63,375 bases of DNA from Ancylonema sp. (Eukaryota). Made by a program: the position numbers and the translations under genes. The stretch spans positions 62,001 through 125,375 of the forward strand of contig JBFLGF010000020.1 of NCBI GenBank assembly GCA_050230475.1. Reading direction: 5' to 3'. Positions 1-53,834 of this stretch are shown here, one piece after another (within the stretch, counting starts at the first letter, position 1; every line of letters begins with the position of its first letter). The notes below the pieces were generated by a model. It saw nothing but the letters and a program-made list of their open reading frames with translations. It was not told where the DNA came from and ran no database searches.

Positions 1-1
1 A

Positions 2-7995: not shown

Positions 7996-8229
7996 ACCGC
8001 GGCCACTTTTATCGAAACCGGTTCCATCTAATATCCGGTACGGAAACGGTTCGGAGTTCGTGCAACTATGCAAATTGTCCATTTGCGATAGCAATCGCAC
8101 ATGTGACTTGTGGTAACCTCCATTGGCATTCCGTAAAACTATTGTGAACTCGATAATCGTGGAAAAATCTAAGAGCATCCAGAGATTATACAAAATTTCC
8201 GTTAGCGTACAAAAGTGCAAAATAATCCG

Positions 8230-8552
8230 AGAAGGAGGAGAAGGAGGAGAAGCATGAGAAGAAGGAGAAGAAGGAGAAGCAAGGGAAGCAGGAGAAGAAG
8301 GAAAAGAAGGAGAGGAAGGAGAAGAACGAGAAGGAGAAGATGGAGAAGAAAAAGAAGAAGAAGAAGAAGAAGAAGAAGGGGAGAAGGGGAGAAGAAGGAG
8401 AAGAAGGAGACGAAGGAGAAGAAGGAGAAGAAGGAGAAGAAAGAGAAGAAGGAGAAGAATGAGAAGAAGGAGAAGAAGGAGAAGAAGGAGAAGAAGGAGA
8501 AGGAGTAGAAGGAGAAGGAGTAGAAGGAGAAGAAGGAAAAGAAGAAAGAAGA
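8230..8552. repeat. (GAAGGAGAA)n array
   Basis: Same 9-mer as 3160-6840; precedes duplicated copy B. Confidence 0.95.
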
Positions 8553-12140: not shown

Positions 12141-12560
12141 AATCAGGGTCAATCAGGGTTAAAATAGGGTTAATCAGGGTTATCTAAGGGCTAATTTTGC
12201 CGCTACTGCCGCCGCCGCTGCTGGGACGGGTACTTCCGGGTAAATATAAACTTGTCTGCACTTGTTTGTATATGTTGCGCCTATTAATAACTTGTCTGAA
12301 TTTATAGAAAATATTCCACCCGATCTTCCACCCAATTTCGGGTGGTGAATTCCTGAAATCTGACGTGTTAATATATAACTTGTCCGGTTTTTTTTGTTTT
12401 GGTTTCGTCATATCAATTCTGACAGGTATTTCAGGGTTAGTAACTCTAGGGTTAATCAGGGATATGAGGATCATTCAAGCTATTCCGGGTTGATCAGGGT
12501 TAATAACGGTCAATCAGGGTTAATCAGGATTTTTCAGGGTTGAATGGGTTTCTCAGGGTT
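11980..12560. repeat. Degenerate CAGGGTTAAT/AACCCTGAT repeat field (telomere-like or transposon subterminal motifs)
   Basis: Many AGGGTT/AACCCT motifs in both orientations, e.g. 'cagggttaatcagggtcaatcagggttaaaatagggttaatcagggt'. Confidence 0.6.
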
Positions 12561-13890: not shown

Positions 13891-15260
13891 TCCTTCTGTG
13901 AATCTTAGCCAACCCCGTTACAGCGAACACAGATCGAAGAATCGTTATCTCAAAGGAAGCTCTGGCGCGACAGATGTACCTGGGCAGTCAAATGCAGAGG
14001 AAGAAACTTCCGGGGACTTTCATGCTCCACCCAGTGCCAGCTGGCGGACTCTTGGCGTTTCAGAAAGCGTTTCATTGGCTCTAGAAGCTGCTGGTCTGAG
14101 TCACCCTTCTTCTGTCCAGGTACACCGCCTGACTTTAGGGTCCTTTGACTAAAGGGTTAATGAAAGTAGGGACTCTGCTTACGCCGGGTGAAGCATGTCT
14201 TTCTTATCATCTGAAGGAGGGTCCAGAACCGTTTGAATATCTGGTTATGTCAATTTTACAAATGAGTACCACCTTCCCTTCACATATTCACTGATTATAA
14301 GCTTTGCACCCGAAACGTCAACGTGCAACCGAAACCTTCAATTTATTAAACCCTAAAAAAACCCAAACCTTATAGTGTACTCTTCAAACCTCCAACTCCA
14401 GCTCGAAACCATTAACATCAAATCTCAATATCGAAACCTTAATACTTAACACTAAACCCTAACCTTGATCCTCAAACTTCAAACCTCACCTGTTCTGTCT
14501 CCGGGGCCCTGGCAGCATCCATTCCCGCCATAGCCTCCGGCAGTGACGTCATCCTCGCGGCACAAACGGGCAGCGGCAAAACTCACGCCTACCTCGTCCC
14601 CCTCCTGGACCGCATACTGCACCTCCCAACTGCAGCTGGCCCAACTTCGCCCCCTGTCACCGAGCAGGGGGGGGTATCCCAGGGCGGATGGGGTGATGGG
14701 GGGGAATGGGGGGGAGGGGCAGCGTGGGGGGGAGAGGCAGCAGAGGGCGGAGGTTGGGGGAGAGGGTGGGGGAGGGGGGGGGGGGTGGGGCGGGGGTTTG
14801 CCCTGGTTCTGTGCCCCAACGCCCTGCTGTGTCAGCAGGTGGTGCACATGGCGGGGGCCCTGCGGTCGCCCAGGGGGGACCCCTTGGTGAAAGTGGCTTC
14901 GCTGACAGGGGGGGGGAGGTTAGAGGGGCGGCGGGGGTTCGGGGGTTCTGGGGTTAGAGGTTTTGGGTTTTGTATGGTTGTATGGTGCAGAGTTGAGAGT
15001 TTTGTGGGGTTCAGATCGCAGGGTTGGTAGGGTTGGGGGTTTAGGAGTTGGGGAGGCAGTGAGTGGTCGAGCTGGGGTTTATTAAGGTTCAAGTGGGGTG
15101 TTAACTTTTAACCCTGATAACACTTAACCCTTAATCTCGAGGTTGACATCCTGATTGAACCCTGCTCCCGAAAACAGAGTTAAAACCCTAGGAATATGGG
15201 TTAACCCTGATTTATACCGATAACTCTAGGGTTATTGGGGTTATCAGGGTTATTAAAGGG
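13891..15260. repeat. Copy 2 of the 10781-12140 duplication, starting right after the N
   Basis: Direct sequence identity with copy 1. Confidence 0.95.
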
Positions 15261-18219
15261 TTAAATCACCACCTGGAACTATGACCTAGGGGGGGAAACG
15301 GGGGGAAGGGAAGGGGGGGAGGAGGGGGAGGGGGGGAGGGGATGTTTTGGGTTTTGGTTTTGTTTTTACTTTTTTTTTTTACTTTTCTATTCTCAGCATC
15401 AGTATGAAAAATCCAAGTATGCGTGTTGTTCACTAGAACCTGAAAAAGAAAAAAGAAAAATAGAATAGAAATAAAGAAAAACAAAACAAAAAAAAATAGA
15501 AAATAAAAAAATGAAAATTGAATTAAAAAAGAAAATAAAAGTACATGAATATGAAAAATTGCAAAGAAAAATCACTAATGTTACTTAAATGAAACGTACA
15601 TCATATTTTGTGAGTAATGACCCGAAATTAGTATAAAAAACGAGCATGAATTTTACTCACAGTGCAAATCATTTTGGTAATTATTCACTTCCCCCCCTTC
15701 GCTCCGCTAGTTCATTTTTTTCCGTTGTTTTCCCTTTTTTAATCCAGGTGGTTCTCCACGCCCATTCCGCCCATGAGCCCGCTACCATGACCGCCCTCAT
15801 CTTGTTGCTAGATCCCAACGGGGAGGTGATGAAGAAGAGGCCACGGGCTCTTACAGCAAATCAGAGCGCAATTTTGGAGGTGCTTTTTGGGCTCTTTCGT
15901 TTTTCTTCCTCTATGAGGCCAACTTGCTCTCATGGGAAAAGAAAATTGGGTTCTCGATGGGTGGAGGGCGAAGTGGTTATTTTATTTCTTGGGGGCAATA
16001 CAAGCCGAGGGCTTTTTATTGGGGTGGGGAGAGGGGGAGGGAGGGCAGTTGGGTCGTGTGTTTTCTTTGTCTGAGACGTGAACGGTGTATTGCACCTTCC
16101 GTTACTTCGCTGTCACCGTTTACATTCTAAACTCGCTGTGAGAAACTAAGAAATAGGAAGAAATAGAAAGAAACTTTTTGTTCAAATTCTCTATTTTTCA
16201 GCCGTCTTTGGGCTTTACCCTGCACCAAAGGCAAGAAGCATTTAATGTAAACAAAAAATAATTTCCGGGCATCACTTGGTTTCGTAGATCGTTACTACGT
16301 ACGAAATTATTCCGCGTAGCTCACATGCATTCCGAAATTGCAGGCTACTGAGTAGGCTATTGAGTCTGTGGTTTCGGGTTTTGGGCTCAGATTGCTTTGA
16401 AAAGGGGCGTCTGTTTGGAAGAGTACAAATCGTACAAGGCATTGGGAAGGATAGCGGTGAGAGAGGGCGGGAACACGTTGGCGGTCGGCATCGTGACACG
16501 TATTTTGGAGAGGAAATGAGGAATTGCGTGGCGCCATGTATTCGCCACGTATGCGCAATATTTGTGTATGACTGTGGTATGTGACATGCGCGAGTGTGGC
16601 TTTGAGTCCTTTGCGTGCTTTTGTTTTTGTAAATATTAGTCATCTCTTTATGGAGGGGAGTGTGAGTTTCATGTATTTTCCGCACCTTATTTTATCATTG
16701 TTTTTTTTCCGAAGATGGCATGCCAAAATCATTTGCGTCACGTGATTGAAGGCAATCCGGATTCTTGGGCATCAAGGAGGGCCAAATTTCCGGGCCCTTT
16801 TTTTTTCGAAAGTCGGTCACACCTTTGTGTTCATGCGCACTTGTTGGAAGAAGATTCGTTTTTATAAAAATGGGGACCTATCTAGCACACACATACTTGG
16901 CTCGCATTCGCTTTTCTTGTGAAAACGGACTTGCACTTTTTCGGGCACTTCAGGGCACATCAGGGGGAAACCTGAATAGATTTCAAGATAAGTGCACCCA
17001 CATCCGAGTTTCTGCACAACCATTCAAAAAGGCACCATAATTGGCAAACGCATTACACAAAACTCATGAATCAAACCTTGTCATGAAGGCACACTCTGTG
17101 TCGAGCCACCAAAATTTTCCCTGGAAAATACGTGCATTTGAAACGTTTTATGGTAAAATACGTCGGGAGGGAAGCACAATGCTTTGACACTATCTCACGT
17201 CTAATCTTACTAGTACGGGTACTACGGATACATGGTCGCAATCAAAGTACTTGAAAAGTATGTATGTGATGGAGAGGATGAGAGGTTACCCTTCACATGT
17301 GTTGCTCCTTGGTACCACGTGGTTTGCCACGTGGTTGTTCTCTTTCCGCATGTGTGCACTTGTGTCCTTGCCTTGCCTTTCAAGTGTAAGTGCCAGCCGC
17401 ATATGTGTCTCCGAACCCGTCCGGGACACGTCCGGAGCCGGACGAGTCCCGGACCCGACCGGCATTTTCGCGTCCGGGACGCAACTATGCCATGGAGGTT
17501 CTTAAAATTTCCCAAAACGTTTTGGAGTAAGGAATCTTTCCTAAGTCGGTAATATAAAATTAATGCTTCCCCCGTAGGTTGATTTTCTGTGTTGTGCAAT
17601 GTTTGCAAGCGAGAATGAATCATTCGTTTGGAGGGCTCATTGCCACGTACTCTAGCCCTGTGTCAAGAACAAATGCTTGTTGAACGTACAACAGTGTGTA
17701 CGATATTGGGAAGATGTGGCCAAAACACAATCATTATTCCTGATTATCGATTTTTCCCGATATTTTTTTTAATCTTTGCGAAATTCAGCCCACCTCCGTA
17801 ACACTGACTAAATAAATTTGGTTGTTTGAAAAAAAAATTACAAAACAAAAAAATGTTCAATGGTGGTTTCTTGTGGAGAAAATTTTCTAGCTAATTTGTT
17901 GCACACCAAACGCTCCTATTCTAACTCCTGAAAGTCATTCTGCCATAATTTAGACTCCTCTTCCTCGACTCGTCTTGAACATGATCCTCAAGTCATGCCC
18001 CTCCAAATCATAAAAGTGTACATTGAAGTGTAAACTTTTATGATTTGGAGGGGCCTAAATGTAGTGCCAACACATGGGTGCAAGTGCTAATACTACCTAA
18101 GCTAGCAAGTTGTACATCTATGCATTTCCTACACAACCTATCTAAGCACACAACTTAAACTCCTTGACTAACCTTCACATGTTTCCTCGGACACGAAATG
18201 AGTCCTAATCCTTTTGGCG

Positions 18220-19022
18220 CGTCTGAATTATTTTAACTGATTCTCGCATTTCGCCCATACGAACTAAGTATCTAGCAAAACAATCTCCACCAGTTTGCCA
18301 TTCTACTTTCCAGTCAAGTTCATCATAACACTCATAATAATCTACTTTACGAAGATCCCATTGAATTCCTGAAGCTCGTAGCATTTGTCCAGAAAGACCC
18401 CAGTTTATGGCCTACATTTTCTACCCTTTGTAGAAAAATAGGATTTCTAGTAATAAGTCTTTCATATTCGTCTATTTTTGGTAAAAAATAATCACAAAAG
18501 TCCAAACATTTATCTACCCAGCCATAAGGCAAGTCTACAGCAACTCCTCCGATCCGAAAATAATTATGCATCATTCTCATACCAGTTGAAGCTTCAAATA
18601 AGTCCTAAATCATCTCTCTTTCTCTTACTATATAGAAGAAAGGAGTTTGTGCTCCAATATCTGCCATAAATGGACCAAGCCACAATAAATGAGAAGCTAT
18701 ACGACTCAATTCTAGCATTATCATACGAATATAACTAGCTCTTTTTGGGACCTGAATATTGGCCAATTTTTCTGGGGCATTTACAGTAATTGCTTCTGTA
18801 AACATAGTTGCAAGATAATCCCAGCTAGTTACATACGGAAGATATTGTAAAATAGTTCTATTTTCTGCAATCTTTTCCATACCTCGATGTAAATATCCTA
18901 GCACAGGTTCACAATGAGTTACATTTTCACCATCTAAAGCAAGAATTAGTCGAAGAACACCATGCATTGATGGATGATGAGGACCCATGAATTATCATAG
19001 GATCAGTTTTTGTACTTAGCAT
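18220..19022 (-). pseudogene. ndhH: Plastid ndhH pseudogene in a NUPT (5' two-thirds)
   Basis: [21 protein letters not shown]...[15 protein letters not shown]...[11 protein letters not shown]. Frameshift after [14 protein letters not shown] at 18605-18607 and a later deletion/frameshift. Confidence 0.95.
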
Positions 19023-19139
19023 AACTCTAATTTTTCTATTATTTTATTTGATCTTATAATTTCCAATATATATTGTTTATTTTTTAAATTCGCTTTTAAT
19101 TTAATATCATTAAAAAAAAAAAAAAAACATTAAAAAACA

Positions 19140-19433
19140 ATTAAGTAATTCCTCGGATTCCAAGAAAATTGATTGACCTCTTACATCTAACTACATCTTC
19201 TCGAAATAAATAAATCAAAAGACGTTTACGTGTTCCTCATATTTTTTGGGTCCTCTTTGAGACGAATAATATTTCTTGTGTTCTTTTAAATGATAACTAA
19301 GTTGAATAACTCTGTTAGTTAAAAAAAAAAAAATCTGAGATTCAGTGGATCCTACATTTTCTTGAAATGCATATTTTGTTTTTATTTCTAAGTTTTGATT
19401 CATAAAATAACAGCTTTTTTTAATACTAATCAT
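19140..19433 (-). pseudogene. rps15: Plastid rps15 pseudogene in a NUPT
   Basis: ENVGSTESQIF..TNRVIQLSYHLKEHKKYYSSQRG; frameshifted; lies between ycf1 and ndhH. Confidence 0.9.
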
Positions 19434-19554
19434 ACCTAATTATAGTATAACATACCTAGATTTAATTTATATAAGAATAATTTGGCAGTACATTATAGGT
19501 TAGTTTAACAAATATTTTATTATATTTTGTTTTTTTTAGAGTTCTAAAATAAAA

Positions 19555-19825
19555 TTACTGTAATATAAAAAAATTGTTAAATTTGTATATTATAGTAATT
19601 CTATTTGAATGCAATTGATTCTCTTGACGATAAATAGAAGGATACATCTTAATTCTTAGTGTACTAAAACGACTTTGATTGTTAGAATCAATAGAAAATC
19701 TAGTAATACAAGCTAAGTCTTCTAAACGATGAACACGCCATAATAATCGTTTTAAAATACGATCGTATTTTAAAACGTCATTTTTGTTAAATAACAAAAG
19801 ATATTTATTGAAGAAACGAAATGAA
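19555..19825 (-). pseudogene. ycf1: Plastid ycf1 3' end in a NUPT
   Basis: [39 protein letters not shown] matches the conserved Ycf1 C-terminal motif. Confidence 0.88.
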
Positions 19826-19874
19826 AATCACTCGCTCCCTCGCGCGCCCAACACAGCGTGAGCAACGGTAACTG

Positions 19875-20515
19875 TGAGGATTCTAAAAGAGTGTGAAGCA
19901 ATACAATAACTAAGTAAGAACACTATAGCTATCGGTCGGCGATTAGCTATCTATGTGTAAGTCTTAATTGCTTGTAATCTGCAGCAAAGGACTTTGAGTC
20001 TGCAAACTGAGCGTAGCTCTGACTTGCGTCGTGTAAATCAGAACACAGGGTAATTCGCGACGGCGAAGTAAACAGACTGAAGCACGATGAGCGACAGCTC
20101 GGATGTGCAAGCAGCAATGACAGTAAAGCACACGAAGCAAGCAAGCAGATTGCAAGGCAAAGCACAGTAGACCGAGATACAGATTACACGAGAGGCAAGA
20201 TAGGATGCAAGTCTCTTCAGCGTTAGATTCAGCAAAAGCTGAATTTAGAGTTCGAAGTACACAGGTTATATTCCCACTTCTACAGATGACGCTAGACGCG
20301 TGTCGATCTACAATTCAATCTCAAGAAATATGTCTCGCGCGCAAATGTCTTATCTACAATATCTAACGTCGGGTATTCATCGACGGCTAACAATTATGAC
20401 AAGTCATCACAAGTTGATTGCATTGCTGACTAATACAAAAGTGCCACGTCGGATCGACGGATAACAAATGCTAAGCAAATCTAATTCAAATATTGAGCGG
20501 GGGCGCAGGCTGACA
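19875..20515 (-). mobile_element. Probable solo LTR
   Basis: TG...CA ends flanked by ACTG on both sides (19871-19874, 20516-20519). The minus-strand start TGTCAGCCTGCGCCCCCGCT resembles TGTCACGACTCCGCTCCCGCT at 781. Confidence 0.5.
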
Positions 20516-20629
20516 ACTGGAGCTCGGGAGCGGGCCGGCGAGCGGGACGGAAGTTGTAGTGCGGTAGGCGGAACTCTTGATTTGGCGCGGCGCAGACGTG
20601 ATTTATTATAGGGAGAGATTTAGTAGATA

Positions 20630-21312
20630 TTAGGGGGTAAAATAGCTAACGATCTCAGACGTCGTGACATACCAGCGTGGTGTGTGAACTGTAGCCAGGA
20701 GTCCCGCCAAGAATTTGATAACGTTCTCGTCCATCATGCGGCCGATGACAGCATGCCGTTGCTTCTCATTGGTGGAGTGTGCAGCTGAGTCTCCCGGGAT
20801 GATGCCCATGTAGCGTTCTTTGTACCATGTAGAGGGGATTTCCCAACGTCGTGCCGGGCTTTTCACCATGCCTGCACCAGCGGTGAGGTGGACGTACTTG
20901 TAGACTGGGTTGTCGGTAAAGGGGGAGAATGTTGGTAACGCCTTGCGTTCTTCATGACGTACGTTGAGTGTTGATTTGAAGGTGTCGGTTATGTACACAG
21001 TCTGCGGCTCGTATCTTGTGTCGAGGACTGCCGAAGTGGTAGGTAAGGCATTGTGCAAATCGGAAAGGGATAGTTAGTTTGTCCATACATGAATGGGTCC
21101 ATGGACGTTGCAGCCGAAGTTTGTACCATCGATGATGACTGAGTGTCCCAAGCAGGCGTGTGCATAAGGCATCATCTCCCTCACCTACTCTGGTGTGTCC
21201 GCGGTAATGGCCTTGGTCTAGAAGATGTAGAGGGGGTGGTAGTTTTGGATGGAGTAGAGTTTTTGGGTCATGTGGATCAAGGTAATGAACGGAATGACTC
21301 GATGATCGTAGA
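20630..21312 (-). pseudogene. C-terminal half of a C5-DNA-methyltransferase-like protein (motifs VI-X), split from its N-half by the chromovirus
   Basis: ...IIDGTNFGCNVHGPIHVWTN*...RKALPTF...EIPSTWYKERYMGIIPGDS...QRHAVIGRMMDENVIKFL aligns with 51605-52165; three in-frame stops. Confidence 0.8.
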
Positions 21313-21764
21313 TGTTAGGGACGGATGCAAAAAGGCGTCCCTAGCAAGCAAGTTGCAATCTGCACACAAGTGGAAAGGTGGCGAAATGCCGGATAGGACG
21401 AGATGGCATGAGCCGATGGACATGGTGGTGAACTAATCGGGAGTGCAAGTACATGAGTTGATAGGAATGCTCTAAAGACATTCCTATGGACTATATATAG
21501 GAACTAGCTCAAGTCTGAATCACGACTGCAAGTGGGATAACTCACTCTAAATATGATAAGGACACATCAAGTCTGGCTAACGGCACAACTGCCTTGGGTA
21601 AGGACACATCAGAATACTCCCTAGGGGCCAGGCGGCCGCTAGGGACACAACTCCCACTCTATAGGGACAGAACTCGCTATAGGGAAAACTAAGCTAGAGC
21701 GCGCTAGCGCGAAGTGTGGGGACCTCGCTAGGGAGCCCTAGTGACTGTAGCGAGGGTCCTAAGA
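21313..21764 (-). repeat. 3' LTR of the chromovirus
   Basis: Direct repeat of 26450-26892 with scattered substitutions and small indels. Confidence 0.95.
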
Positions 21765-21775
21765 GTACCCCCCCC

Positions 21776-23050
21776 TCAAGGCGCGGAACGCGATGAGGGA
21801 GGCGGTGCAGGCCGAGCGGGAAACGTGGCATGGAAATCTGCGACCGCGTCCGCAGCATTTTCCATGTTGTCGGCAGGTTCCCAAGAACGCTCTGATTCAT
21901 CGTACCCGACCCAGTCGACGAGGTAGAAGAGCTGGCCTCGCACGATCTTGGAATCCATAACTGTGGCCACCTCATGTTGTGGCGCGCCGTCCACAACGAC
22001 CGGAGGTGGAGGTGCCACGACACGACCTGGGAATGTGTTGGTATGGTACGGCTCGAGGAGGCTGACGTGGAAGACCGGATGGATTTTCACAGAGGACGGC
22101 AGCTCCAAGCGATACGACGAGGTGCCGATCTGGCGGCCAAGCACCGGGACAGGACCCAGACGACGGACATCCAGTTTCGACGAAGGACGAGTGGATCCGA
22201 CGTGGCGCCGGGACAGCCATACTTTCTGACCAGGCGAAAACATCGGAGCCGATTTGCGCTTCCGATTGGCCGAAGTTTCCATCGCCCGCTGGGATTTGCG
22301 AAGCGCTGACTGGAGGAAATCTTGGGTGCCGTGGATCGTTGTTTTAAAATAATCGTCGGCTGCGGGGTTGGGGGGATTGGGGGAGGGCGGGAGCAGCAAC
22401 ATCTGCGGGTGGAAGCCGTAGTTGGCAAAGAACGGGGAGAGGGTGGTGGCGGAGTGCTTGGAGTTGTTGTAAGCGAACTCCGCCAGCGGCAAAAGTTTGG
22501 ACCAATCGGATTGTTGGTAATCGGTGTAGATTCGCAGATATTGCTCGAGAACCGAATTCAGGCGCTCCGTCTGCCCGTCCGTCTGCGGGTGAAAAGCAGA
22601 GGAGCGGTTGGCCCGGACGCCGAGCAGCTCCAACAGCCGGCGCCAAAAGTGGCTGGTGAAGATGAGATCGCGGTCGCTGATGAGGCTGTTAGGCAACCCA
22701 TGCAGGCGCACCACTTGCTGCACGAAAAGCGCTGCGACCTCAGGAGCCGCCATGGCCTTGGTGGTAGGGGAAGTGGGCCTGCTCGTCAGCCGGTCGACGA
22801 CCACTAGAATTGCGTCGTGGTAGTCGCTAGGGGGAAGGTCAGTTATCCAGTCTAGAGAGACACTGGTCCATGGCTGGGTAGGTATTGGTAAGGGGAACAA
22901 TAGTCCATAGGGCGCATGGCGCAACGGCTTGGTCCGGGCGCACATGTCGCACGTGCGCACGTACTCCTCCACTGCCTTCGATAGGCCAGGCCAGTGGAAG
23001 TACTGCGCCACCAGCGCGTGCGTGCGGGCAGTGCCAAAGTGGCCTGCCAT
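21776..23050 (-). CDS. Integrase plus chromodomain of the chromovirus pol
   Basis: GHFG...CDMC zinc finger, SLDWITDLP, SDRD, HPQTDGQTERLN, GPF-like region, chromodomain EVATVMDSK...YLVDWVGYDESERSWEP. Confidence 0.95.
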   Translation of the reverse strand: MAGHFGTARTHALVAQYFHWPGLSKAVEEYVRTCDMCARTKPLRHAPYGLLFPLPIPTQPWTSVSLDWITDLPPSDYHDAILVVVDRLTSRPTSPTTKAMAAPEVAALFVQQVVRLHGLPNSLISDRDLIFTSHFWRRLLELLGVRANRSSAFHPQTDGQTERLNSVLEQYLRIYTDYQQSDWSKLLPLAEFAYNNSKHSATTLSPFFANYGFHPQMLLLPPSPNPPNPAADDYFKTTIHGTQDFLQSALRKSQRAMETSANRKRKSAPMFSPGQKVWLSRRHVGSTRPSSKLDVRRLGPVPVLGRQIGTSSYRLELPSSVKIHPVFHVSLLEPYHTNTFPGRVVAPPPPVVVDGAPQHEVATVMDSKIVRGQLFYLVDWVGYDESERSWEPADNMENAADAVADFHATFPARPAPPPSSRSAP

Positions 23051-23068
23051 AGTGCGTCGTGGTACGAG

Positions 23069-24700
23069 TCAGGATAGAGAGGATAAGGATAAGGGCTTAG
23101 GGGGAATAGCGAGGCGGCTGCGATGGTAGAGAAGGCCGTCTCGTAGGGTGTAGGGGAATTGGGACTCGCCTGCAGTGCGACTCGGGCTGGATTCCCGAGC
23201 GGGTCCGGGTTGTAGGGACGTAGCGATAGCGTGTAGGGTTGGGTCGGCTAGCTGAGCAGCGCAAATGGCTTCGAGGATAGGGTTGTCGTTAGGTGCAAGT
23301 AGGATAGCTGCAGCACGCACCGGGGAAACTGGTATAAAAGCTGGTGGTGGAAGGACTGGGTGGGGGGATGTGGCTGGCAGCAGATAGTCAGGTATGCGGG
23401 AAAGGACGTCCGGCTTGCCATGGCTGAACCCCTTCTTGTAGACTATAGTGAAGTCGTAGGCTGCCAGCGTCTCGGCCCACCGCGCATGCCTACGGGATGT
23501 AGTTCGAGCGGCCTGGAAGTACTCTAGGTTCTTATGGTCGGTGTGGACGACGATAGGGTGGGCCGCGCCTTTCAAGTAGACTCGCGACTGGCGAAACGCA
23601 GCCACGATGGCGAGCAGCTCTTTGTCATAGATAGGATAGTTGAGTTCGGCTGGGATGAACTTCCGGGAGTAGTATGCTACGGGGTGGAGCTCGCCGCTGG
23701 GATCTGGTTGCGACAGGACGCAGCCGAGGCCGAAGTCTGAGGCGTCTGCTTCGATGGTAAGCGGCTGCAGTGGTGGGAAATGTTGCAAGACGGGAGCTGA
23801 GGTGAAGGCCAGCTTGAGGGATTGGAAAGTTGTCTCCACCTCAGGTTTCCAGCAAAATGTTGCCCCCTTCCGAGTCAATGAGGTGAGGGGGCACGCCACC
23901 GTAGAATACCCGTTAATGAAACGTCTGTAGAAGTTAGCAACCAAGAAAGGACTGGATCTCCTTGATTGACTGGGGTTTGGGCCAGTCAAGGAGAGATGCC
24001 ACTTTCTCGGGATCCATACCCACGTCGGCTGGGGATACCCGGTAGCCGAGAAAGTCGATAGTGTCTGTGTTGAACTGACACTTCTCGATCTTAGCATAGA
24101 GGTTGGTGGTTCTTGCGTAGGATTGCGAGGATAGCACGGACGTGGGGGACATGTTCGGCAAGGGAGGGGGAGTAGATGATCATGTCATCGAGGAGGTTTG
24201 CTAGGAAGACGTCGAGAGGCTCGCGAAACACGTCGTTGATGAAGGACTGAAAGGCTGCCGGAGCATTGGTAGGCCCGAAAGGGTAGACCTAGTACTCGTA
24301 GTGGCCGTAGCGGCAGCGGAATGCAGGCTTGTACTCATCCCCCTCTTTGACGCGCAGCTGGTGATAAGCGTTGCGGAGGTCTCTTAGTGAAGATCGTGGC
24401 GGAGTTGAGGCGGTCCAGCAGCTCAGGTATGAGGGGTAAAGGGCAGCGATTCTTCACCGTGACCGCATTGAGCTCGCGGTAGTCCACGCACAACTTGAGT
24501 TTGCCATCAGCCTTTTTTATGAACATAACCGGTGCTCCACCCGGGCTAGTGGATGGCCGGATGAAGCCATTCGCCAAGTTGTCCGTGATGTACGTTTTGA
24601 GAGTTGCCAGCTGTGGCTCTGAGAAGGTATATATCGGCCCCCAGGGGGGTTCCTTGCCTGGTAAGAGAGGGATCGCTAAATCGTAGGACCTGTGGGGGGG
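23069..24700 (-). pseudogene. RT and RNase H of the chromovirus pol (frameshifted)
   Basis: [69 protein letters not shown]. Confidence 0.95.
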
Positions 24701-24806
24701 AGGGGAAGCGTGTTTGCAGCCTCCTCGGAGAACACGTCTGCGAAGTCGTGGTACTCGGGAGGGAGCTTGCCTAACAGGGCGGGGTCTGGGAGGAAGTGCA
24801 CAGCGT

Positions 24807-25319
24807 TCAAAACTGCAGGTTTTTGGGCTGGGTATAAGGCGGGGGAAGGGGGGGGGGGGGGGAAGGGGAAGTACTGGACAGCAGGCACTCAGCAGCACAG
24901 TGTGGACAGGTGAGGGACAGGGTGCCTGACCGCCAGTCTATGTTGGGGTTGTGCTTGTGCAGCCAGGGGAAACCCAAGACGACTAGGCAGTGCGCCAAGC
25001 GGGTGACGTCCAAGGTGATGGTTTCTGTGTGGTCGCTTGGGGATCGGAGTTGTGCTGAGAAGTAGCAGGTAATGGGGCCAGCAGCTGGAGGATTGCCATC
25101 AATAAGCTCGACCGGGATAGGCTGGGGATGGGGGTGGGTGGGTAGATTGTTGTCTTCCAGGATCTGGAGGTCTATGAAGTTTCCTGACGCCCCAGAGTCG
25201 ATCAGCACGCGGACAAGTACGGACAGGTATGGGTGGGAGGGGGTAACGGAGTAGCTGGCAGGCCAGCAGGAGCTAGCGGGGGTGGGGAAAGGGGGAGGGT
25301 AGGGAAAGGGGACCCCCAC
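24807..25319 (-). pseudogene. Aspartic protease of the chromovirus
   Basis: VLIDSGASGNFI ... [17 protein letters not shown]. Confidence 0.92.
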
Positions 25320-25355
25320 AGACCCCTCCTAGGACTGTGTGGGGTGGTCGTTTTT

Positions 25356-26354
25356 TTACTCTGAGTGTTGCAGATCGAGGAAGCGCACGGTGCGTCCCTT
25401 GCCCTTGTTGGGACAAGTCCTGTTGTCATGGCCTCGCAGGCCGCAGTAGTGGCACAACAGGTGGCCAGCCACACGGCGAGCCATTTCCGGTGGTTCCACT
25501 TTCAGGACCTGGCGGCGGGTTCCATCGATGTCCATGGGGACGATTTGCAGGTGAGAGGGCACCTGCTGGGGAAACTGATCCGCAGCTCTGGCTTGGGGGG
25601 AAATGTATGCAGGTTTGGAGGGTCGGTCGAGACTGCTGGCAGCCATGCTGTTCTCCACCTTCTTGACAAAGGTAACGTACGCTGAAAAGGTTTCAGGAGG
25701 TCTTGCACCTTGAAAATTTATCGACGGAGCTCCGGTTTAAGTTTCTCGAAGAAGGTATAGATGCTCGGGTGGTCAGGCCATGGGGGGAAGGTCTTAACAA
25801 TAGCCCTGAACTGGAGAGTGAAGTCTGACACTGAACCGGTTGGTCTGAGTTCGCGCAGGTGTCGTTCCTTGGTGAGTCGGGTATCGCCCTCCCCGAAACA
25901 GTCTTGGAGATCCGTCAGCAGTTGAACTGCGCCAAAACCGTCCGGGAGGTCTCCCGTTGTCGTCGAGGTAGTTAGAGAACCAGTCGTAGGCAAGGCCAGT
26001 TAGTAGAGTGGCCACGTAGTGGACAATCTGAACAGGATTGTGGAACCGCTTAGGTGCCAGCCTGAGCATAGACCGGACCCGGTGGCGGAATGTAGCGACA
26101 TCTTCGGAGGTCCCATTAAATGTAGGAGGGTCAGATGGAACCAGATCTTTGAGTGTAGGGATAGGCTGGTATTCTGAAGTGGCTGGATCGCTTGCAAAAG
26201 CCATGTAATTTGATTCATAAGCAAACTGGTCCGAAAGTTCTGTAAATTTGCCTTTGATGTCTCTATTTTCCTCCGCCAAAACTCTGAATTTTTCATATTG
26301 AGAATGTTGCATCGGACGTAAAGCCATGACTTCCTCTAAATTGGGAGAAGACAT
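25356..26354 (-). pseudogene. Gag of the chromovirus (frameshifted)
   Basis: PPTFNG, LLTGLAYDWF, QTGSV-like LRPTGSVSDF, PMDIDG, zinc knuckle CHYCGLRGHDNRTC. Confidence 0.9.
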
Positions 26355-26449
26355 AGTTGAATAGGTAGGAGATGAAAAAAAGGGAGGCGGCTGAATGAAG
26401 TTCAGATTCAGGATATCCTTAAAAAAAACTTCAAAGATTCCTATCAAAG

Positions 26450-26892
26450 TGTTAGGGACGGATGCAAAAGGCGTCCCTAGCAAGCAAGTTGCAATATGCA
26501 CACAAGCGGAAAGATGGCGAAATTCCGGATAGGACGAGATGGCATGAGCCGATGGAAATGGTGGTGATATAATCGGGAGGCAAGTACATGAGTTGATAGG
26601 AATGCTCTAAAGGCATTCCTATCGACTAGATATAGGAACTGGCTAAAGTCTGAATCACGGTGGGATAACTCACTCCGAATATGATAAAGACACATCAAGT
26701 CTGGCTAACGGCACAATTGCCGGAGCTAAGGACACATCAGAATACTCCCTAGGGGCCAGGCGGCCGCTAGGGACACACAACTCACTCTAAGGGACAGAAC
26801 TCGCTATAGGGGAATCTGAGCTAGTAGCGCGCTAGCGCTAAGTGTGGGGACCTCGCTAAGGAGCCCTAGTGACTGTAGCGAGGGTCTTAACA
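26450..26892 (-). repeat. 5' LTR of the chromovirus
   Basis: TGTTA...TAACA termini; followed by the TSD. Confidence 0.95.
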
Positions 26893-27926
26893 GTAGATGC
26901 CGCGCAGCTTGCCGTAGGTCCTCTTCATCTCTTGGTTCCAGTTGGCGACCACCAAGTCGACACCTCCTTGCTCCTCATAAAGTTTCTGTAGCATGTCTAG
27001 CTTATGATTTTGGACTTGGAAAGGGAGTTGGTTGTCGTAACCTTGGATGGCGCTCTCAGCAATTTGGTGAGGATCACGAAGGGGTAGTTTGGTAATGACC
27101 GCACGAGAGGTGGTTCTGCAGAGACCGTCGTCTTCGCTGGAGGTGAGCCATCGTAGATTTTTGTCCACGTATAGCGCGATCTTGGTGCCAAGATGGTCGG
27201 GTCCGCTGCATGGCTCGTAAATCTGCAGTCCTCTCTCCAAGTGGTTTTCCAGAAAGCGTCGTTGGATTTTTTGCATGGGTACGGCGCCCAGGATATTGAT
27301 GCCGTTCCATCGAGGTACTAGTTGAGGATGGATAATTATGGTACGGGGGGCTCGTCGAACTCTGTCGATGTTGTTTTCCCCGAAGATGCGGATCTGATGG
27401 GTGAGGTGTCGGCGAGAGGCTGGTGCTACTAGTTGTTGTTGTAGTGCGACGGCAACGATGATTTTGGCGTGTGTGGATGGGGGGATTCCATCGACACTTA
27501 TCATGTGTCGAATTGTTGTTCGCTCCACTGGCCATGAAGCTCTGATATATTTTTCCCCGGTGATGCCTCTGAACGTGGCTTTGGACCTGGCAGCGTCGTT
27601 CATGTCGTGGGAATCGTTAAGGTGCAAGAAGTGTTGGAGTCCCAAGGGTTTCTTTGACATGTCGATGTAGCGGTTGACTGCCTCTTGGTCCCGGGTGTGC
27701 TCGTTGACTTCTGTAATGGTAAGTGCAAATTTTTGGTTTAATATGTAATCTCTGAGAATGTAGCTTGCGTGTAAAGGCAAATATTTACCTCGGTTTGTAG
27801 GCACCGGTGCGTAAGAAAGTCGACTGCGAGTGTTGCGAGTTGGAGGTGATGGAGTGCGGGAGTGGCGGCGTGAAGTGGATGGGGCAGCTTCATCGATGGG
27901 GTTGAGCTGGATGTTGTCGATGTCAT
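26893..27926 (-). pseudogene. N-terminal half of the DNMT-like protein with substituted catalytic motifs
   Basis: The 305-aa open frame NHLERGLQIYEPCSG...GGVDLVVANWNQE...GKLRG aligns without gaps around motif IV to HMLTEGVHVVDFFCG...GPIDLIWAVFPCQ...GPGRG. Likely ATG at 27926 with one frameshift near 27800. Confidence 0.78.
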
Positions 27927-29695
27927 GACGCTAGAGATCGCTAAGGTGAAACCCCTCTAGATTGTTCAGGGACCCCTCTAGATTAATACTCTGCTATAAC
28001 GAGAGTATTCGATATAACGATTTTCTAGAATTAGTACTTAACTAGAAAAATAGTGAAGTACGAAATTTGTACGACCGAAAATAATGCGTGGCGTATTTTC
28101 CGAAGTCTAGAATCCAACAGTCTTCAACAAATAGCTGCGTGTCGATTTTGTTAAAATCACAAGTCCCTTTCGACTTGTCGATAAATCCCGGCGATTAAAT
28201 CCAGCCGTAGAACTAGAGTAATATCTCGCGCCGTTTTCATCGGAGCGCCGAGATATGAATAATTGTAATGTTCTAGAAGCCAGCCTGTTGCTATCTTCGA
28301 CAATTTAACTCTAGTTAACTTTGCCGGTTAGTACCGCGCAACAACTTTGTGATAAAAGACAATTTGTACTTTCAGATCTGCCAGCTTCCGCTGTCAGATT
28401 GCGCTGTTAAGAAATCCCTTCCAACAATCTTGTTATCTGAATCCTTGCAATTCTGTGAATATTGCATCCCTTCGCTTACGCGACTTCGCAACGTACGTCT
28501 TCCGACTCAGCCTGACATCCGTCAGCCAGCCAGTAAGATTGCAAATCATTCTTTGCAATCTGTGTGTGTGTGTTCAGTTATTTGATCTGATTCATCTGAA
28601 TCTACTGCTGACGCTCTTTCTGAGCCAGCTTGTTAATCGACTGTAATTTCTTACATCGATTCGCTGACTCTCTCTCTGAGCCAGCAAGCGTACGTGTGTG
28701 TGTTAAACATCTTTCGATTTTCCCACGTTCGCTCCGAGCCGGCAATTTCATTTGTGTGTGTGTGTTTGCTGTCGCTCGCTCCGAGCCAGCATTTGTTGTA
28801 AACACCTGTTGAGCCAGCATCTTTTATCGACGCGCCGTCGATACTTTGCTTTCGCACCGAAAGTAACGCTTACGGTTGTTAACCTTGATAGTCTGCTCCA
28901 GACTATCTTGTTTGCTTTATAGTATATTCACAGACTTTTGTACTATAAACCATCTGTTAGCTCGCCCTCGGCGTTAAGTAGTGAATTTCACCAGACCGCT
29001 GAGACGTGTGATAGATATAAATATCTCAGCAGAGACTCAATCTGCAATACTACTTCAATCCGACCGCGGAAGACCTTGAATTATCAACAATTTAAAGTCA
29101 GAAAAGGTAAATTGCCTCCAAAAAAAAAAAAAGACAACTTTTCTTCTACTATTTTGTATTCAATGTGCTCGCAAGAGTAGTGCATGCACTGGTCACGAGA
29201 TAGTAGAGGGAGATTGACGAAACAAGGGATAACTTAATCTGCTGAAATTGTCGATCGACCAGCTGCACCAGCTGTCGACAATAACTCTCCACGATCACCG
29301 GACATTGATATAATTAATATCGAATCACCAGCTGCACCAGCTGTTGATACTTATATTCATATTGATATTGACAATTTAGCTGGACCAGCTGTCAATATTT
29401 CGGCATTCCATTTGCCAACCACTCTTCTCGATAACGATTCTACAACCCAGGTAGAATTAAAATTTGAACCCAACAAATTGACACGTTCTACATCTGAACC
29501 AAAACATTTTTTGGAACGCCTACCTATAGGCTCTATTAACTTGAAACCTGTTTTGATTATTGACACAGACGACCACATCGTCGACACCACAAAACCTGTG
29601 GCTGGACCATCGACCACTGTTCCCACTACAACGCCACCAACGCTGCAACAACATCCATTTATCGACACAAGATAAAAGGTGGGACAGACTCTACC

Positions 29696-30815
29696 ATGGC
29701 AAACCCAACGCCATTACTAACATATACTGGAGAAATTGGTGTCAAACAAGACGAGTTCATCGATAGTTTGAGACAGTTAGACCGAACTCAACAACGCGCA
29801 CAACGTATGGGGCATGTTACAGTGGGACTCAGTACTAGCTCATCGAGAATGGCAACAGTTTTAACCGTGGTACTACTACTACGGAAGATATTCGAGATAT
29901 GTACCGTGAACATAATTCCAATGTCGCATATAAGGTAGACTGGATGGACAGCATGCACCGATCAAACCCACAGTATCGGCAGCAGAACCAACAAAACTGA
30001 AACTGTTCATCACTACCATCAAAAATCGTTTTCGAAATCCAGCTGCAGAATTTGTCACTTAGATCAAAACATTTTCAGCACGACCCAACGATAGTGTTGC
30101 AACCACACGTTTTAACGAATCCGCAACAATTGTTCAAGAGGCAGGAGCCATGACAAAAGAACAAGTGGCTAGGAGGTATCTACCACATAGTCCTCTACCA
30201 CTACAATTCTATATCGACGACTGGCATTTCCGTGAATCAGAGGAAAGGTATTACAAGAGTCCACCGGATCCTCCTATTACACGGAAGGAGATTATGGAGA
30301 AAGCCAACAAGGCTGAATTACTACGTATGGAACAAGACGCTGAGAACCGCGCAACTGGGATCACGAGATCTCCTAAACTACTTTCATACACTCCATCTAC
30401 TCCATACAATGCTCCTAAACCAACGGGCGTATTGACACCACGACAGGATAACAGCATGGACTGCTACAACTGTCATCAAACCGGACACCTTTCGCGTGAC
30501 TATCCTGCACTAAGGAAACAAAACAACTTCCAGTCATCAGGTTACCAATCTAATAAAAATTCCAAAATCAACCACTCCTCAGGATCACAGTTTAAGGGAG
30601 GTGCGTATGGTACTAAAAACAGACAATCTTTCAAACCACGACCTCGCCAGTTTGATGCAAAACAGTACACCGCTGATGCATTCTGTGAATATTGCAAAGG
30701 GAAACACCACACCCGAGACCAATGTCAGAAACTTGCCAAGGCACAAAACTTACTAACTCTCAGTACACCACCCAGTGCAGATACAACCCAAACAAATCGG
30801 GTGGAAGACTCCTGA
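29696..30815 (+). pseudogene. Retrotransposon Gag-like remnant with two zinc knuckles
   Basis: CYNCHQTGHLSRDY (last Cys mutated) and CEYCKGKHHTRDQC; frameshifted N-terminal part from MANPTPLLTYTGE. Confidence 0.75.
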
Positions 30816-32390: not shown

Positions 32391-35300
32391 TTATTTTGGA
32401 GAATCGACTCGCCTCCGTCCCACGAGGTTGACCCTAAATGTGCGTATCTCCATCGGACCCAACTCTACAACAGTGCCAAAAGTCAACGGGGCGCCTCTCA
32501 AAGGTGTGGGAGGGGGAGACTTCTCCCCTTCCACCCTCCATTTGAGCGGCTTCAAATCCGATTTCCTCCGGTTGCCAGTCAAACTCAATTCCACTATCTC
32601 ACCAATCTGCCGAAACATACCGGAAAAAAACGTTCCAATAAAAGAAACGCCGGGATATCGATATTAATAATCAAGGATGTGGATAATAATAATTGAGGAT
32701 GGAATACATGAGACAAAACGGATGCGTGATATCGGAGCATCGGATTCGAACATTCGGTGATTATTTATGATTGGTGCAAATATTCGAGGAGGAATGAGAC
32801 GCCATGTTCTTCCTTTGACAAATTCTGGACATTGTATAACTTAGACAACTCACGAACTAAATGGTAAAGTGGGTGCTAAAGACTAAAAGTGATCGTAAAA
32901 TGAATCTTCAATTGTTGATTCTAGAGTTGAACCCCTTCAATCCGAAATTTATATGTAAAACTTTCCATCGTGATAAATTTCTTTTGGCTGGCTTTTTTTT
33001 TTCCTGGGATTTCCGCTAGTAAATGTGGATGGACAAGAAACATGCTTTTCTGGTGGGCTATTTCTGGTGTATTTTTTGGTCTATTCATTTGGTTTTGGAA
33101 ACTCTCTATGTGCCTCAAACCAAGGTTTAAATTTAGATGTCGACCAAAGGAGTGCGTTTCCTAATCGCGATCAATGAGATGACCGAGTCAAAGTCAAAGT
33201 CAAAGTCAAAGTCAACGTCGACTTGATCTACCAAGAAAGTCAACCAAAAAGTCAACCAAAAAGTCAACGCCAAAAAAAGTAAGGCCATGCCCAGAGTAGC
33301 AAGTTGAAATGTAGAATTCAGTTTTTGGAATTCAGAAACGAATGCCCATCTCCTCACCTCTGCAAGTCCAAAGATTTTCGCCACATCCACTTTTGCCAAC
33401 CTCGAGTACTCCTCATCCTCCCCAACCTCGTACAAATGCGCCAACCGCAACAGCACGCCACCATCCGGCAACTCCTGATCAATGGGAGGGGGGGAGGAGG
33501 GGGGATGGGGGCACGTGGATTATCGTTTATCATTTACCATCTATCACTCGTCATTTATCATTTATCATTTATCATTTATCACTTTATCGCTTATCATTTA
33601 TCACTTATCATTCATCATTCATCATTCATCATTAATAATTTTATCATTATCATGAAAAGTCAAAAGATTTGACACCCTCATCTGACCTGGAGCGTTATGA
33701 GGGCGACATTCGGCGGCAGCTCGAATCCCTCCAACACACCCGAGAATGACGTGGCATGTCCACGTTGCTGCCACGTCAGCGCATCGCCCGCGGCCTGCCA
33801 TGTCAGCAGCACCACCACCAGCCAATGAAAAACGAGCCCAACCCGCAGCGAGGATAAAAAATCCCAATTTCCCGTCCAATGAGGACCCAGACTCAAGCAT
33901 GCGAAGCACATGAGACCCAATGAGAGACCAGAATCCGTACCTCGGTCCCAAACGCCAGCTGCAGCGGGAACAGAAGCTTCTGCGCACCTTCCCTGCGCCA
34001 CCTTCCCCCCTCCCCCCTGGGCGTAACCCCCACACGATACCTCCCAGTAACCACCAAACCACGACAACCCTCCCCCTCCCCATCCCCCCCCCCCCCCACG
34101 CACACCCTCTCATTTAATGGCTCCCCCACCCCCTTATTGTCATCTGTGAGCAATCGTCGGTGAATCATCATTTCAATCTCCCCCTGGCGGAGACTGGCCG
34201 CGCCCACGGAGCGGTCAACGAGGACGGAAAGGTCAACGCGGCCGTCGGTGACGTAGATCCCGGCGTTCACCTGAGAGGAGACACACCCAACCCCCAGCCC
34301 CCAACCGCCCCCAGCTGCGTATTAGAGAGACTGGAAAGACGACCTTGGGTGCTCCAAAGACCCCCCGCCCGCCCTGCGCGGGTGCTGACGTCAGCACCCA
34401 CGCGAATGCACATGACGTCATCGTTTCCGAGTCCGTACCGGGTAGAAGTTCCCCGCCACGTCATCGGTGACGTTGAGTGACCAATCATCCCGATGATCCA
34501 CCACCTAGAAGAAAATAATCCCCCCCCCTGGGTTGGTTGGGGGGGGTTCCCTCGATACAGTAACATTTGGTGTGGGGGAAGGGGAGAGGGAGGGCAGGGG
34601 GGGTGATGAGTGTACCCTCTCGATATAGTCACGGCCATTGGAGTCCGTGTAGAACGTCCGCTGGCTGCTGACGTCAGCGGCGGTGAGGCGAGTGATGACC
34701 TCGCGGGCGATGCCGTCGGAAACGGGGATGGGGCCAACCTGAGGGGGGGGGGGGGTTAGAGGGGTTGGATTGGGGGGGGGGGGGGGGGTAGGGATGGGGG
34801 GGGTTATTTTTCCTTACTGTGAATTGTAATTCTGCGAATGGTTCCCCCTTGTAGATGCGGATGACCTGGAGGGGGGATGAACCTTATATGGTTCACGGAT
34901 TATAGAGGGGGATGCAAGGGGGGATGGGGTCGCGGATTCAACCTAATGTGTGGAAAGTCGCTGTGTGTTTGGGCAGACTGTCGAAAATGGAATGTTTTTT
35001 GCATTCGTTTTTTTCCCTTATCTAGTTTTTTTTTTTTTTTTTTTTTTTTATATTTTTTTTGTAATTATTATAACCATTTATGATCTAAATCATAAGTTTC
35101 TTTCCTTTGAAGTTTGACACATATGACTTCACTTTTATACATTTTTTCATTTTCAAATCGTGAATGTCAGATTGAGACCTGTGATACCCAATCACTCCAC
35201 TTCTGATGCACTTCCTCCACCAGCTCGCCCTTAAAAGCCTTGAATTGAACCTGGGGAGGGAAGAAGATAAGAAGGGAACCAGAAACATCAAATCCAACCT

Positions 35301-38300
35301 AATATGAGTTTGGGACTGTAGATTCCAAATTCCAGTCCTTTAATCCTTTTTCGACTTGCTTCCCGACCCCCCCTACTTGTTTTTCTTCTTTTCCGGGGTT
35401 CTATAAAGTAAAAAACTCCCCTTCAGTTATTCTTTGTCTACATATCAAATGGCAGCAGTCAGAGGTTAAGAGTAAGAGAATAGGAGCGCATGAAAAAGGA
35501 ATCGGTCCAGAAAAAAGAAGTGAAAAACGTTTCACAGAGTGGGGTTACGAAGCAACAACGGCCCCCTTCCCAATATTACCATGTGTATAATATATGTATC
35601 ATAACGTATGATACTACCGTAACATATGATACTCATCACCCCCCCACCCCCCCAAATAAAAAAATAAAACACCCCGGTGGTCCTCAACCCCATCCGTGTC
35701 GGCCCCTCTCACTTTTCCCCTCCCCACTTCGTACGCCTCGCTGCTGTTCGGACGGAAGAGATAAGCACCCGACACCTGGCATAACCACAGCCCCCAACCC
35801 CCAACCCCCAACCCCTAACCTCCACAATCTTTCCTTCCTCTTCCCTCCCACTTAGGTAGACACACTTTGTGCCATGCTGTAAATCACATCTCACTCCCAC
35901 CCTGTCGCTGTAGCGAATTCTGACGTAACTGCCGTACTGCCATTTCTGCCATTTCTGCCACTGTGCCATTTCTGCCATTTCTGCCATTTCTTCCATTTCT
36001 GCCATCTCTGCCATATCTACCATTTCTGCCATACCGGCGACGGGTCCGGGTCTGTGGCACTCGGATTGCCCGAGTACCACAGAAACTCCTGCCCCAACTC
36101 ATGCGACACCTGGCAGGCAGAAAACGACAGGGGTCAGGAGAAAGCAACAACAGAAAAAACAGCACAGCCAGGTGGGAAAAACAGAACCGGATCGATTCCC
36201 CCACCTCCTTATTCCGATCCGCGTATCGTTTCAGGTGTCCGGTCTGGGGGTCGAAACTCAGTTCCACCCCCCCCCACCCCTCTCCCAACCCCAACCCCCT
36301 ATCATTGCTGAGGGGTACCTCCACAGCCTCCCCTGCCGAACCTGATCGGGAAAACCAGAATCGTCAGACCAACATGCATCTGAACCTGAACCTGAACCTG
36401 AACCTGAACCTGAACCTGAACCTGAACCTGAACCTGAACCTGAACATGAACCTGAACATGAACCTGAACTTGAACATGAACATGAATTTGATAATGGATC
36501 GGAATGGGAACCCAAAAAGCAGCAAGCATATACTGGCAACAAGTTTTCCAAACCGAGCATGATGGGGAGAAGTGCGTCATCTGATTTTCCACATCCTAGA
36601 ACGGTTTTTGGACCCAGATTTTGAACCCCCACCTGCCTTTCCTCTTCCTATATTCGAACCCAATCGTCCCAAAAAAGCCACCCCCCCAAAAAAAACATTT
36701 CCAACACCCAGAAAAAGAAACCTGGCTCCCCCCCCCAAACCCCTCCCCCCCCCCCTCACCTGCCTCCCCCTTCCCAGCTGCCTTGATGAAGTATGTGGTC
36801 CATCCCAGGGGGGAGGTGGCAGCTTCAAACGTGAGGTCATAGATCGGGTCTGACTCTGACACCGACTCTGCCAGCTGTTCGTTGAAGGCTTGCACCTGCC
36901 ACCTCCTCTCCGCTGATGACACGTGGCCGACAGGTGTCACTTGGGAGCGCACAGGGTGGCCACTCGAATCTGTGACTGCCACGTGTGGGGTTGACACCTG
37001 GCAACAAGGGGGGGGGGTGAGCGGATGAACGAACTAGAAGGTTTTTGGTTCTATGCTTAGGTGTTCACTGGAATTCGTCTGAACCAACTGTGTTAAGAAG
37101 TTATTTTGTAGCTGTATTTGTACTCAAATGTTCGCCCGGACTTCGGATATTGCGTTAAAATCTAGCGTCTATGCTGATAATCTGTCTAAATTACAGAGCC
37201 CCTCGTCCCTAAAAAATATCGATATAGACAGTTTCTTCCATTGATGTAACAACAATCTGCCCAAGTGTGGAGTAGCATTTCAGATTTATTGAGATCGGTG
37301 TTAGGGATCAGAGTCAGTCCTGTTAGTAAAGTTACTATCGATAGGAGTACACCAATACAAATAATAATACTAATAATATAATACTAATAATACTTTGAAT
37401 ATTAATGACACCGACAATACTAATTATACTTATAATTATTACTCATACGTGTACTCTCCCTACTTCTTCTACTCTCTCTACTAGTTCTACTCGTGATTAT
37501 ATCATACACATACTAACACAACTAACATATTTGTACACATATCACTGCCTTTAATAGCATCATACTGATGCTATTATTAACATAAAAATGATTACCGGAC
37601 TTGTGACGTACTCCTTCCGACTCCGCGCTAGGGGGTTATAGGCCACCATAACCTGCAGTAACCAAGAATAAATACCCTGACTTCCCACCCCGGTTACAAG
37701 CACATCCAGGAGAGCCCACTAGCCTCATCCAGCCCATTGAGATTGAAGTCTGGGGTTCAGATTTTCGGGGTTTGGGGTTCAGGGCCATCGTGTATCGCAC
37801 CACGGACGCTCCATTCGAGAAGTCGGTTTCGAGAGGGGTACAGAAGCTGACGTTAAGAAGAGGACACTGCAAAGAGGAGCCCCCCCCAAAAAAAGACATT
37901 TAGGAGAGGACATTTGGTAAATAAATGTGTGTATATTTGTACACACATATATACATACACATGTATACAAATATACATGTTACAGATATATACACATGTA
38001 CATGTTTACATATTTACATGTGTACATATATACATGTGTATATATAATATATGTACCAAAAAACAAAGGAGCCCAAGATCTGTACACTTCTCCTTCCTAA
38101 ACATGCATTTGTGTTTGTTTCGGTTGCAGCGATAAGAGGATCAGTAACAGTGAGACTTCAATAAAAACGCCTCCATTAAGGCACAAAATTATCCCCAACC
38201 GAAAGTGTGCCCTTAAAGAGGGGTGGCCCCTACCAGGTGTCAATAAAAAGGAGACTCAGACTGTTTTGGAAAAGTACAAAGAAACGATCCCCTTACACTA

Positions 38301-53830: not shown

Positions 53831-53834
53831 GGGA

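Follow-up and report, generated by a model that had tools for sequence, protein, structure and literature searches.

The stretch analyzed here (hereafter the window) comprises 63,375 nucleotides from Ancylonema sp. (assembly GCA_050230475.1, contig JBFLGF010000020.1, positions 62,001 to 125,375 of the forward strand). Its minus strand carries a gene resembling C5-DNA methyltransferases (DNMTs), which is split by a nested Ty3-type long terminal repeat (LTR) retrotransposon and lacks the catalytic residues of its relatives. A sequence-only reading had proposed that the gene becomes legible once 21313-26892 and one copy of GTAGA are removed. This was borne out: the excision yields a single reading frame with the junction GKLRGIY/DHRVIPF, and the empty-site joint from 21307 to 26893 is present in contigs of all four runs examined (five in X1, two in X2, three in X3 and one in X4). 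These runs represent at most three samples from two studies; X1 and X2 derive from the same sample, and the window itself may come from X1. The LTRs of the nested element (26450-26892 and 21313 to about 21765) are 90.8% alike, with a Kimura two-parameter distance of 0.074.

The window copy is a decayed remnant of 555 codons, which has been cut three times (Table 1). It had been read as about 570 codons with three stops and about one frameshift; the three stops were indeed found (at 21220, 21187 and 21076), but no frameshift is needed and the remnant is shorter. At the 5′ side, unrelated sequence is joined to position 27921 in contigs, and the high-copy element that begins there carries a zinc-knuckle gag-like frame at 30063-30815. 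At the 3′ side, the 12 codons that lead up to the stop at 20632 derive from the LTR-like terminus ending at 20669, and the 3′ piece is about six codons shorter than two sister copies. The sister protein P0004 matches from the gene's first codons and extends at least 103 residues further upstream, and another relative, P0028, diverges from the window copy after HTPRWY. Since insertions cut both ends and sister copies run past both, the remnant does not represent the full extent of the gene, and its description as a stand-alone gene is not supported. The proposed start codon also failed: the ATG (27926-27924) is not in frame with the gene and falls inside the inserted LTR-like terminus.

The two flanking high-copy stretches were considered as the LTRs of a carrier element and rejected. 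Their termini at 27921 and 20669 have 18 of 23 terminal bases in common and nothing beyond, and both face away from the gene. The DNMT-like gene has a summed contig depth of about 5,000-7,000, versus 130,000-1,100,000 for both flanks; this 20- to 200-fold excess and the continuation of sister copies past both ends also spoke against that assignment. A further terminus resembling these two (TGTCATG...GAAACCCC) cuts, at position 695, what remains of the protease-like and linker parts of another family of DNMT-type Gypsy elements at 1-694 (+), in which 543-686 is 54% identical to the N-terminus of the relative P0006. The three termini of this kind all lie within sequence of DNMT-type elements, by chance nesting or target preference.

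Table 1. Coordinates of the DNMT-like remnant, its motif positions and the associated elements in the window.
Feature	Position	Strand	Description
5′ piece of DNMT-like frame	26893-27920	(-)	342 codons; some 200 residues without a known match ahead of motifs I-IV; includes one GTAGA
3′ piece of DNMT-like frame	20670-21307	(-)	213 codons; motifs V-X region
Motif I position	27202-27216	(-)	EPCSG; intact relatives ELFGG, DMFSG, DFFCG; P0006 EPFGG
Motif IV position	26926-26943	(-)	NWNQEM; Gln at catalytic Cys position; no indel
Motif VI position	21215-21229	(-)	Stop where intact relatives have Glu (LEN)
Motif VIII position	21077-21103	(-)	HGPIHVWTN; neither Arg present
Motif X position	20723-20749	(-)	VIGRMMDEN, kept; intact relative RIGRALDAN; identical in P0028
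Nested Ty3-type LTR retrotransposon	21313-26892	(-)	5,580 bases; matches to capsid, protease, RNase H, integrase and chromodomain models
Target-site duplication	21308-21312 and 26893-26897		GTAGA, on both sides of nested element
Separate high-copy element	27921-30815	(+)	Starts TGTCATGAC; cuts 5′ part of DNMT-like gene
Separate high-copy LTR-like stretch	19800-20669 (left limit approximate)	(-)	Starts TGTCACGAC on minus strand; cuts 3′ end of gene
Comparison DNMT copy	50582-52186	(+)	DNMT3-like domain; motifs IV, VI and VIII present, five stops; behind protease-like frame

Homology and catalytic motifs

A protein search over 1.84 billion representatives returned 11 matches. Four of these were pieces of the same family (P0001, P0002, P0004 and P0005, with 82%, 78%, 83% and 48% identity, respectively) and three were outside relatives at 26-28% identity; four long multi-repeat proteins (P0003, a Cys-rich repeat protein, and P0008, P0010 and P0011) were dropped. 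A search with the 3′ piece added P0028 and P0029. The relatives come from short ENA contigs, and P0001 and P0028, which share one contig of 1,569 bases, may be a single copy. Among six family proteins or pieces, four (the window copy, P0001, P0004 and P0029) are broken. A word-indexed search with a 347-residue piece gave no relative among proteins of 190-608 residues, the same type of search with the family alignment gave P0001 and P0005 only, and scans of loci in metagenome contigs, viral contigs and prokaryote genomes produced none.

The window contains its own standard of comparison in a Gypsy-type fossil at 49970-53900 (+), where a protease-like frame and a DNMT3-like domain are followed by remains of reverse transcriptase and RNase H. 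The colinearity claimed between this domain and the split gene was confirmed: the domain matches the 5′ piece (23% over 146 amino acids, E 3e-8) and the 3′ piece (25% over 140 amino acids, E 3e-10), and the intact relative P0016 is matched as well (E 1e-15). A profile of five relatives scored 141 bits against the read-through sequence, compared with 5.7 for the best of 1000 shuffles, although the score is slightly circular because two of the five profile rows were found with the query. The profile alignment spans the sequence from the Trp-x-Gly before motif I to past motif X. A mixed profile matches DRM and DNMT3 structures, and P0016 has a Pfam DNA_methylase match and aligns to M.HaeIII and DNMT3C, which places motifs IV, VI and VIII. 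The motif positions are fixed because the intact relatives match Pfam DNA_methylase and the DNMT3B, DNMT3C and DRM structures; the motif numbers themselves are labels that we assume to apply here. None of seven family pieces matches Pfam PF00145, versus four of the five distinct relatives outside the clade (the exception being P0006). On the evidence of these alignments, the window family is a C5-methyltransferase homologue of the DNMT3-like retroelement clade, colinear over motifs I-X. In a tree of seven rows with a midpoint root, the three sequences spanning motif IV formed a clade (support 100/99) whose stem measured 2.0 changes per site, and the path from the window copy to P0005 amounted to about 1.0 change per site.

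The residues that an active C5-cytosine methyltransferase requires are absent from this family: the motif IV Cys from the window copy, P0001 and P0005, the motif VI Glu from the window copy and P0005, and the motif VIII Arg from the window copy, P0001 and P0029. The replacements claimed at motifs I, IV, VI and VIII, the one at motif IV without an indel, are all present. At motif I the Phe and the second Gly are replaced. The motif IV loop NWNQEM is identical in all three family sequences that span it (window, P0001 and P0005), and no other stretch is as invariant between the window copy and P0005 as this former active-site loop. At motif VI, P0005 reads YIFWT where intact relatives have YILEN. 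The two relatives that span motif VIII (P0001 and P0029) have a shifted frame there; when the codons allowed in them were listed, neither of the two Arg positions could encode Arg in either relative. Methyl transfer to C5 is impossible without the motif IV Cys, according to the relevant passages of PMC2965745. Since NWNQEM occurs in relatives of 82% and 48% identity and no motif VIII Arg is possible in two, the catalytic loss is a trait of the family. The replacements are not private decay of the window copy, which retention of the catalytic residues in sister copies would have indicated. The domain otherwise retains its full length, the motif X Gly-Arg, an acidic residue where motif II would lie and its basic character (pI 8.5). 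In the target-recognition region, intact relatives have a Thr directly after Pro, and this Thr has not been preserved in the family. The match between RKALPT and RRVLPT, to which the sequence-only reading had drawn attention, does exist, but it is partly luck: its Thr is private to the window copy and is missing from P0028 and P0029.

As a separate observation, motif IV is also unusual in certain retroelement DNMT relatives (P0006, P0007 and P0009/P0016): P0016 has WECQ, with Glu for Pro, and the single copy P0007 has WEFQ, which lacks the Cys.

About 200 residues precede the domain in the window copy, and P0004 supplies about 100 more. No protease, linker or known family was matched in these approximately 300 residues, using Pfam, NCBIfam and the corresponding regions of the relatives, and neither the N-terminal part nor the tail of P0028 matched the protease or linker regions of intact relatives. 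The architecture differs from gag-protease-DNMT, because intact relatives carry a protease 140-230 residues upstream of the DNMT domain. The statement that the gene lacks a protease fusion holds for these 300 residues, but the family sequence covered may stop short of the true start. Similarly, no ADD/PHD or UBA targeting domain occurs in the sequence covered, which may end before the true N-terminus.

Selection among sister copies

Selection was assessed over 26905-27235 (motifs I-IV, 109 codons) from 121 contigs of run X1 with at least 80% likeness. The region has 45 variant places at a share of at least 8%, with no indel listed, and even a 540-base contig with 90 differences was free of gaps. 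The counts rest on 40 of the 45 places, and none of these 40 variants alters a residue in YEPCSG or NWNQEM. Variants below 85% share, which distinguish sister lineages from one another, comprised 22 synonymous and 10 non-synonymous changes (omega 0.13-0.24), against an expected synonymous fraction of 0.22-0.34; the associated p-values (2e-8 to 7e-5) are too small, since the variant sites are linked and the data come from one run. Counting the remaining five places all as non-synonymous gives an omega of 0.28. Variants of 85% share or more, which are private to the window copy, comprised two synonymous and six non-synonymous changes (omega about 1). The synonymous bias was stable over thresholds of 0.7-0.95, and the contrast between the two classes was weaker (Fisher p 0.007-0.09). 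The three stops are compatible with roughly 4-5% neutral decay.

These results support purifying selection on the family together with neutral decay of the window copy. This would be the pattern of a mobile element whose active lineages keep the protein and in which every dead copy decays. It had been suggested that the motif replacements predate the decay of this copy, and that dN/dS across copies would be informative. Both points are supported: the replacements are common to diverged relatives, and omega among the shared variants is not near 1.

Two alternatives bear directly on these data. One is that a dead DNMT fragment simply decayed or was passively amplified. The window copy by itself, with its three stops, its three cuts and its neutral private changes, has that appearance. 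However, the same replacements occur in the relative of 48% identity, the motif IV position lies three bases away from any Cys codon, and the synonymous bias and the absence of indels in 121 contigs do not fit; this explanation is already largely refuted, and we regard it as very improbable. The other is that the host has domesticated the family, which would serve it as a plant or algal counterpart of DNMT3L; purifying selection and the absence of a visibly linked transposition gene might be cited for this. In contrast, the many sister copies, the absence of introns, the four broken members out of six and the neutral decay of the window copy fit dead element copies, and a host gene is accordingly improbable.

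Other features of the window

A plastid insertion at 18205-19800 (-) contains a broken ndhH, whose best matches are chloroplast NdhH proteins; a small frame upstream of it is presumably rps15. This insertion and the DNMT-bearing Gypsy fossil both indicate a streptophyte host, probably a green alga or a plant of moss-like type. The Gypsy-type fossil is followed by a copia-type fragment at 54000-56700 (-). Exons of an alpha-mannosidase gene (Pfam Alpha-mann_mid matches) extend over about 33600-45000 (-). A long tandem array with a 9-base GGAGAAGAA-type unit occupies 3200-8600, where minus-strand frames remain open for up to 812 codons. The segments 10781-12141 and 13891-15252 form a direct duplication of 1.36 kb, 97% alike; with an N at 13889, it may be an assembly artefact.

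Possible role of the family

Homology, colinearity, family-wide catalytic loss, synonymous bias and neutral decay of the window copy are the observations in which we place high confidence. A non-catalytic role for the family protein is likely on this basis, and a role in modulating methylation, argued by analogy, is an evenly balanced proposition. Overall, the explanation to which we give an even chance is that the window holds a decayed copy of a multi-copy, likely mobile family of DNMT pseudo-enzymes, kept as a non-catalytic decoy or partner.

According to this explanation, the ancestor would have been a retrotransposon DNMT3-like domain, in which the motif IV Cys, the motif VI Glu and both motif VIII Arg residues were then replaced. 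The family is probably mobile, as indicated by its many sister copies that lack introns, several of which carry frameshifts or deletions, and by its retroelement ancestry. The methyltransferase fold is presumably kept, with binding as the putative role. By analogy with DNMT3L and DRM3, such a binder may modulate the active DNMT3-type enzymes that target its own element, and the active-type DNMT retroelement in the same window counts in favor of a partner or decoy. The direction of the effect is a guess: it might shield the element from host methylation or stimulate a sibling enzyme.

Several points weigh against this explanation. AlphaFold gave no usable model of the DNMT-like sequence (predicted local distance difference test scores of 37.6 and 31.1); fold searches with the first model gave nothing, and the best score of an ESM Atlas search (0.79) was no meaningful match. 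Neither the protein searches nor the locus scans revealed a full-length open copy or a carrier element. The most distant family member, P0005, is a single fragment of 103 residues. The selection estimate covers 109 codons from a single run, possibly the window's own sample, with the overstated p-values mentioned above. The loss of the Thr after Pro argues against canonical DNA recognition and simple decoying of DNA.

Rather than acting on methylation, the protein could have a structural or nucleic acid-binding job in replication of the element, such as packaging, priming or choice of insertion site. The 300 upstream residues without a known match place the basic domain in a new context, and a retrotransposon-borne MBD has been proposed to steer integration (PMC6673714, in the passages concerned). 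Conservation of the former active-site loop above all other stretches would, however, not be needed for a purely structural role, and we consider such a job unlikely.

A change of chemistry to S-adenosylmethionine (SAM)-dependent methylation of amino groups (N4-cytosine, N6-adenine, RNA or protein) appears more doubtful still. The invariant Asn five residues after the Asp of DLVVA presumably sits like the Asn of NPPY, and we take EPCSG to resemble the motif I of amino-methyltransferases. The acidic residue at the motif II position and the motif X Gly-Arg are kept, and Pfam AviRa matches weakly over motif I (E 0.02, below the cut-off). No amino-methyltransferase family was matched in Pfam or NCBIfam, however, and motif I has lost its Phe and its second Gly. 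The loop reads NWNQ and not NPPY: at positions 2-4 there is no PP, and the sole aromatic residue is the Trp at position 2.

The preferred explanation, a decoy or partner of methyltransferase descent, can be compared with known systems. Retrotransposon DNMTs have been described in Klebsormidium and Symbiodinium, where the relevant passages report conserved key residues and a Ka/Ks below 0.2, and leave the job of retrotransposon-borne methyltransferases as an open question (PMC5890265). The matching passages of a 2025 survey repeat this account and mention no dead form (PMC12344493). Like the window family, KnitGypsy-Dnmt3 of Klebsormidium nitens (de Mendoza et al. 2018, PMC5890265, as there described) is a multi-copy, intron-less, DNMT3-related domain of retroelement type under purifying selection, its Ka/Ks comparing with an omega of about 0.13-0.24 here. 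Unlike the window family, with its replaced motifs IV, VI and VIII and no protease within the 300 upstream residues, it resides in the Pol frame and keeps its key residues. The gag-protease-DNMT proteins P0016 and P0023 and the window element at 49970-53900 are colinear with the family over the whole domain (23-28% identity), but the Cys, Glu and Arg are intact in them, and a protease lies 140-180 residues upstream of the domain.

DNMT3L of mammals and DRM3 of angiosperms are likewise conserved DNMT3-lineage paralogues that have lost the motif IV Pro-Cys; in contrast, they are host genes that carry ADD/PHD or UBA domains and have a partner, whether known or proposed, and DRM3 has lost the motif X Gly that the window family keeps (Henderson et al. 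2010, PMC2965745, in the parts dealing with these proteins). The VANC anti-silencing proteins of VANDAL transposons (PMC10398659) and CopiaMBD (PMC6673714), as portrayed in the pertinent passages, are similarly element-encoded, non-catalytic and engaged with the host methylation system, but they belong to unrelated protein families, neither of methyltransferase descent. An element-borne, catalytically dead DNMT family was not found in the literature searched, which took in only a minority of subscription papers.

In broader terms, and somewhat more tentatively than the explanation given above, a streptophyte mobile element may have evolved a DNMT3L-like pseudo-enzyme from a captured methyltransferase and used it against or with active DNMT3-type enzymes, or may have rebuilt the C5 active site into a new chemistry. 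If our reading holds, catalysis was dropped and the protein was kept, meaning that the retrotransposon DNMT domain is valuable apart from methylating DNA. The window would then offer a natural pair, dead versus active in one genome, for studying the function of retrotransposon DNMTs. After DNMT3L and DRM3, it would be the third time that a pseudo-enzyme arose independently in the DNMT3 lineage, in this case probably in the service of the parasite. More such families may be hidden, since Pfam and NCBIfam miss this one entirely; if true, either form of the broader proposal would add a new type of tool, encoded by elements and missed by domain searches, to the methylation arms race.

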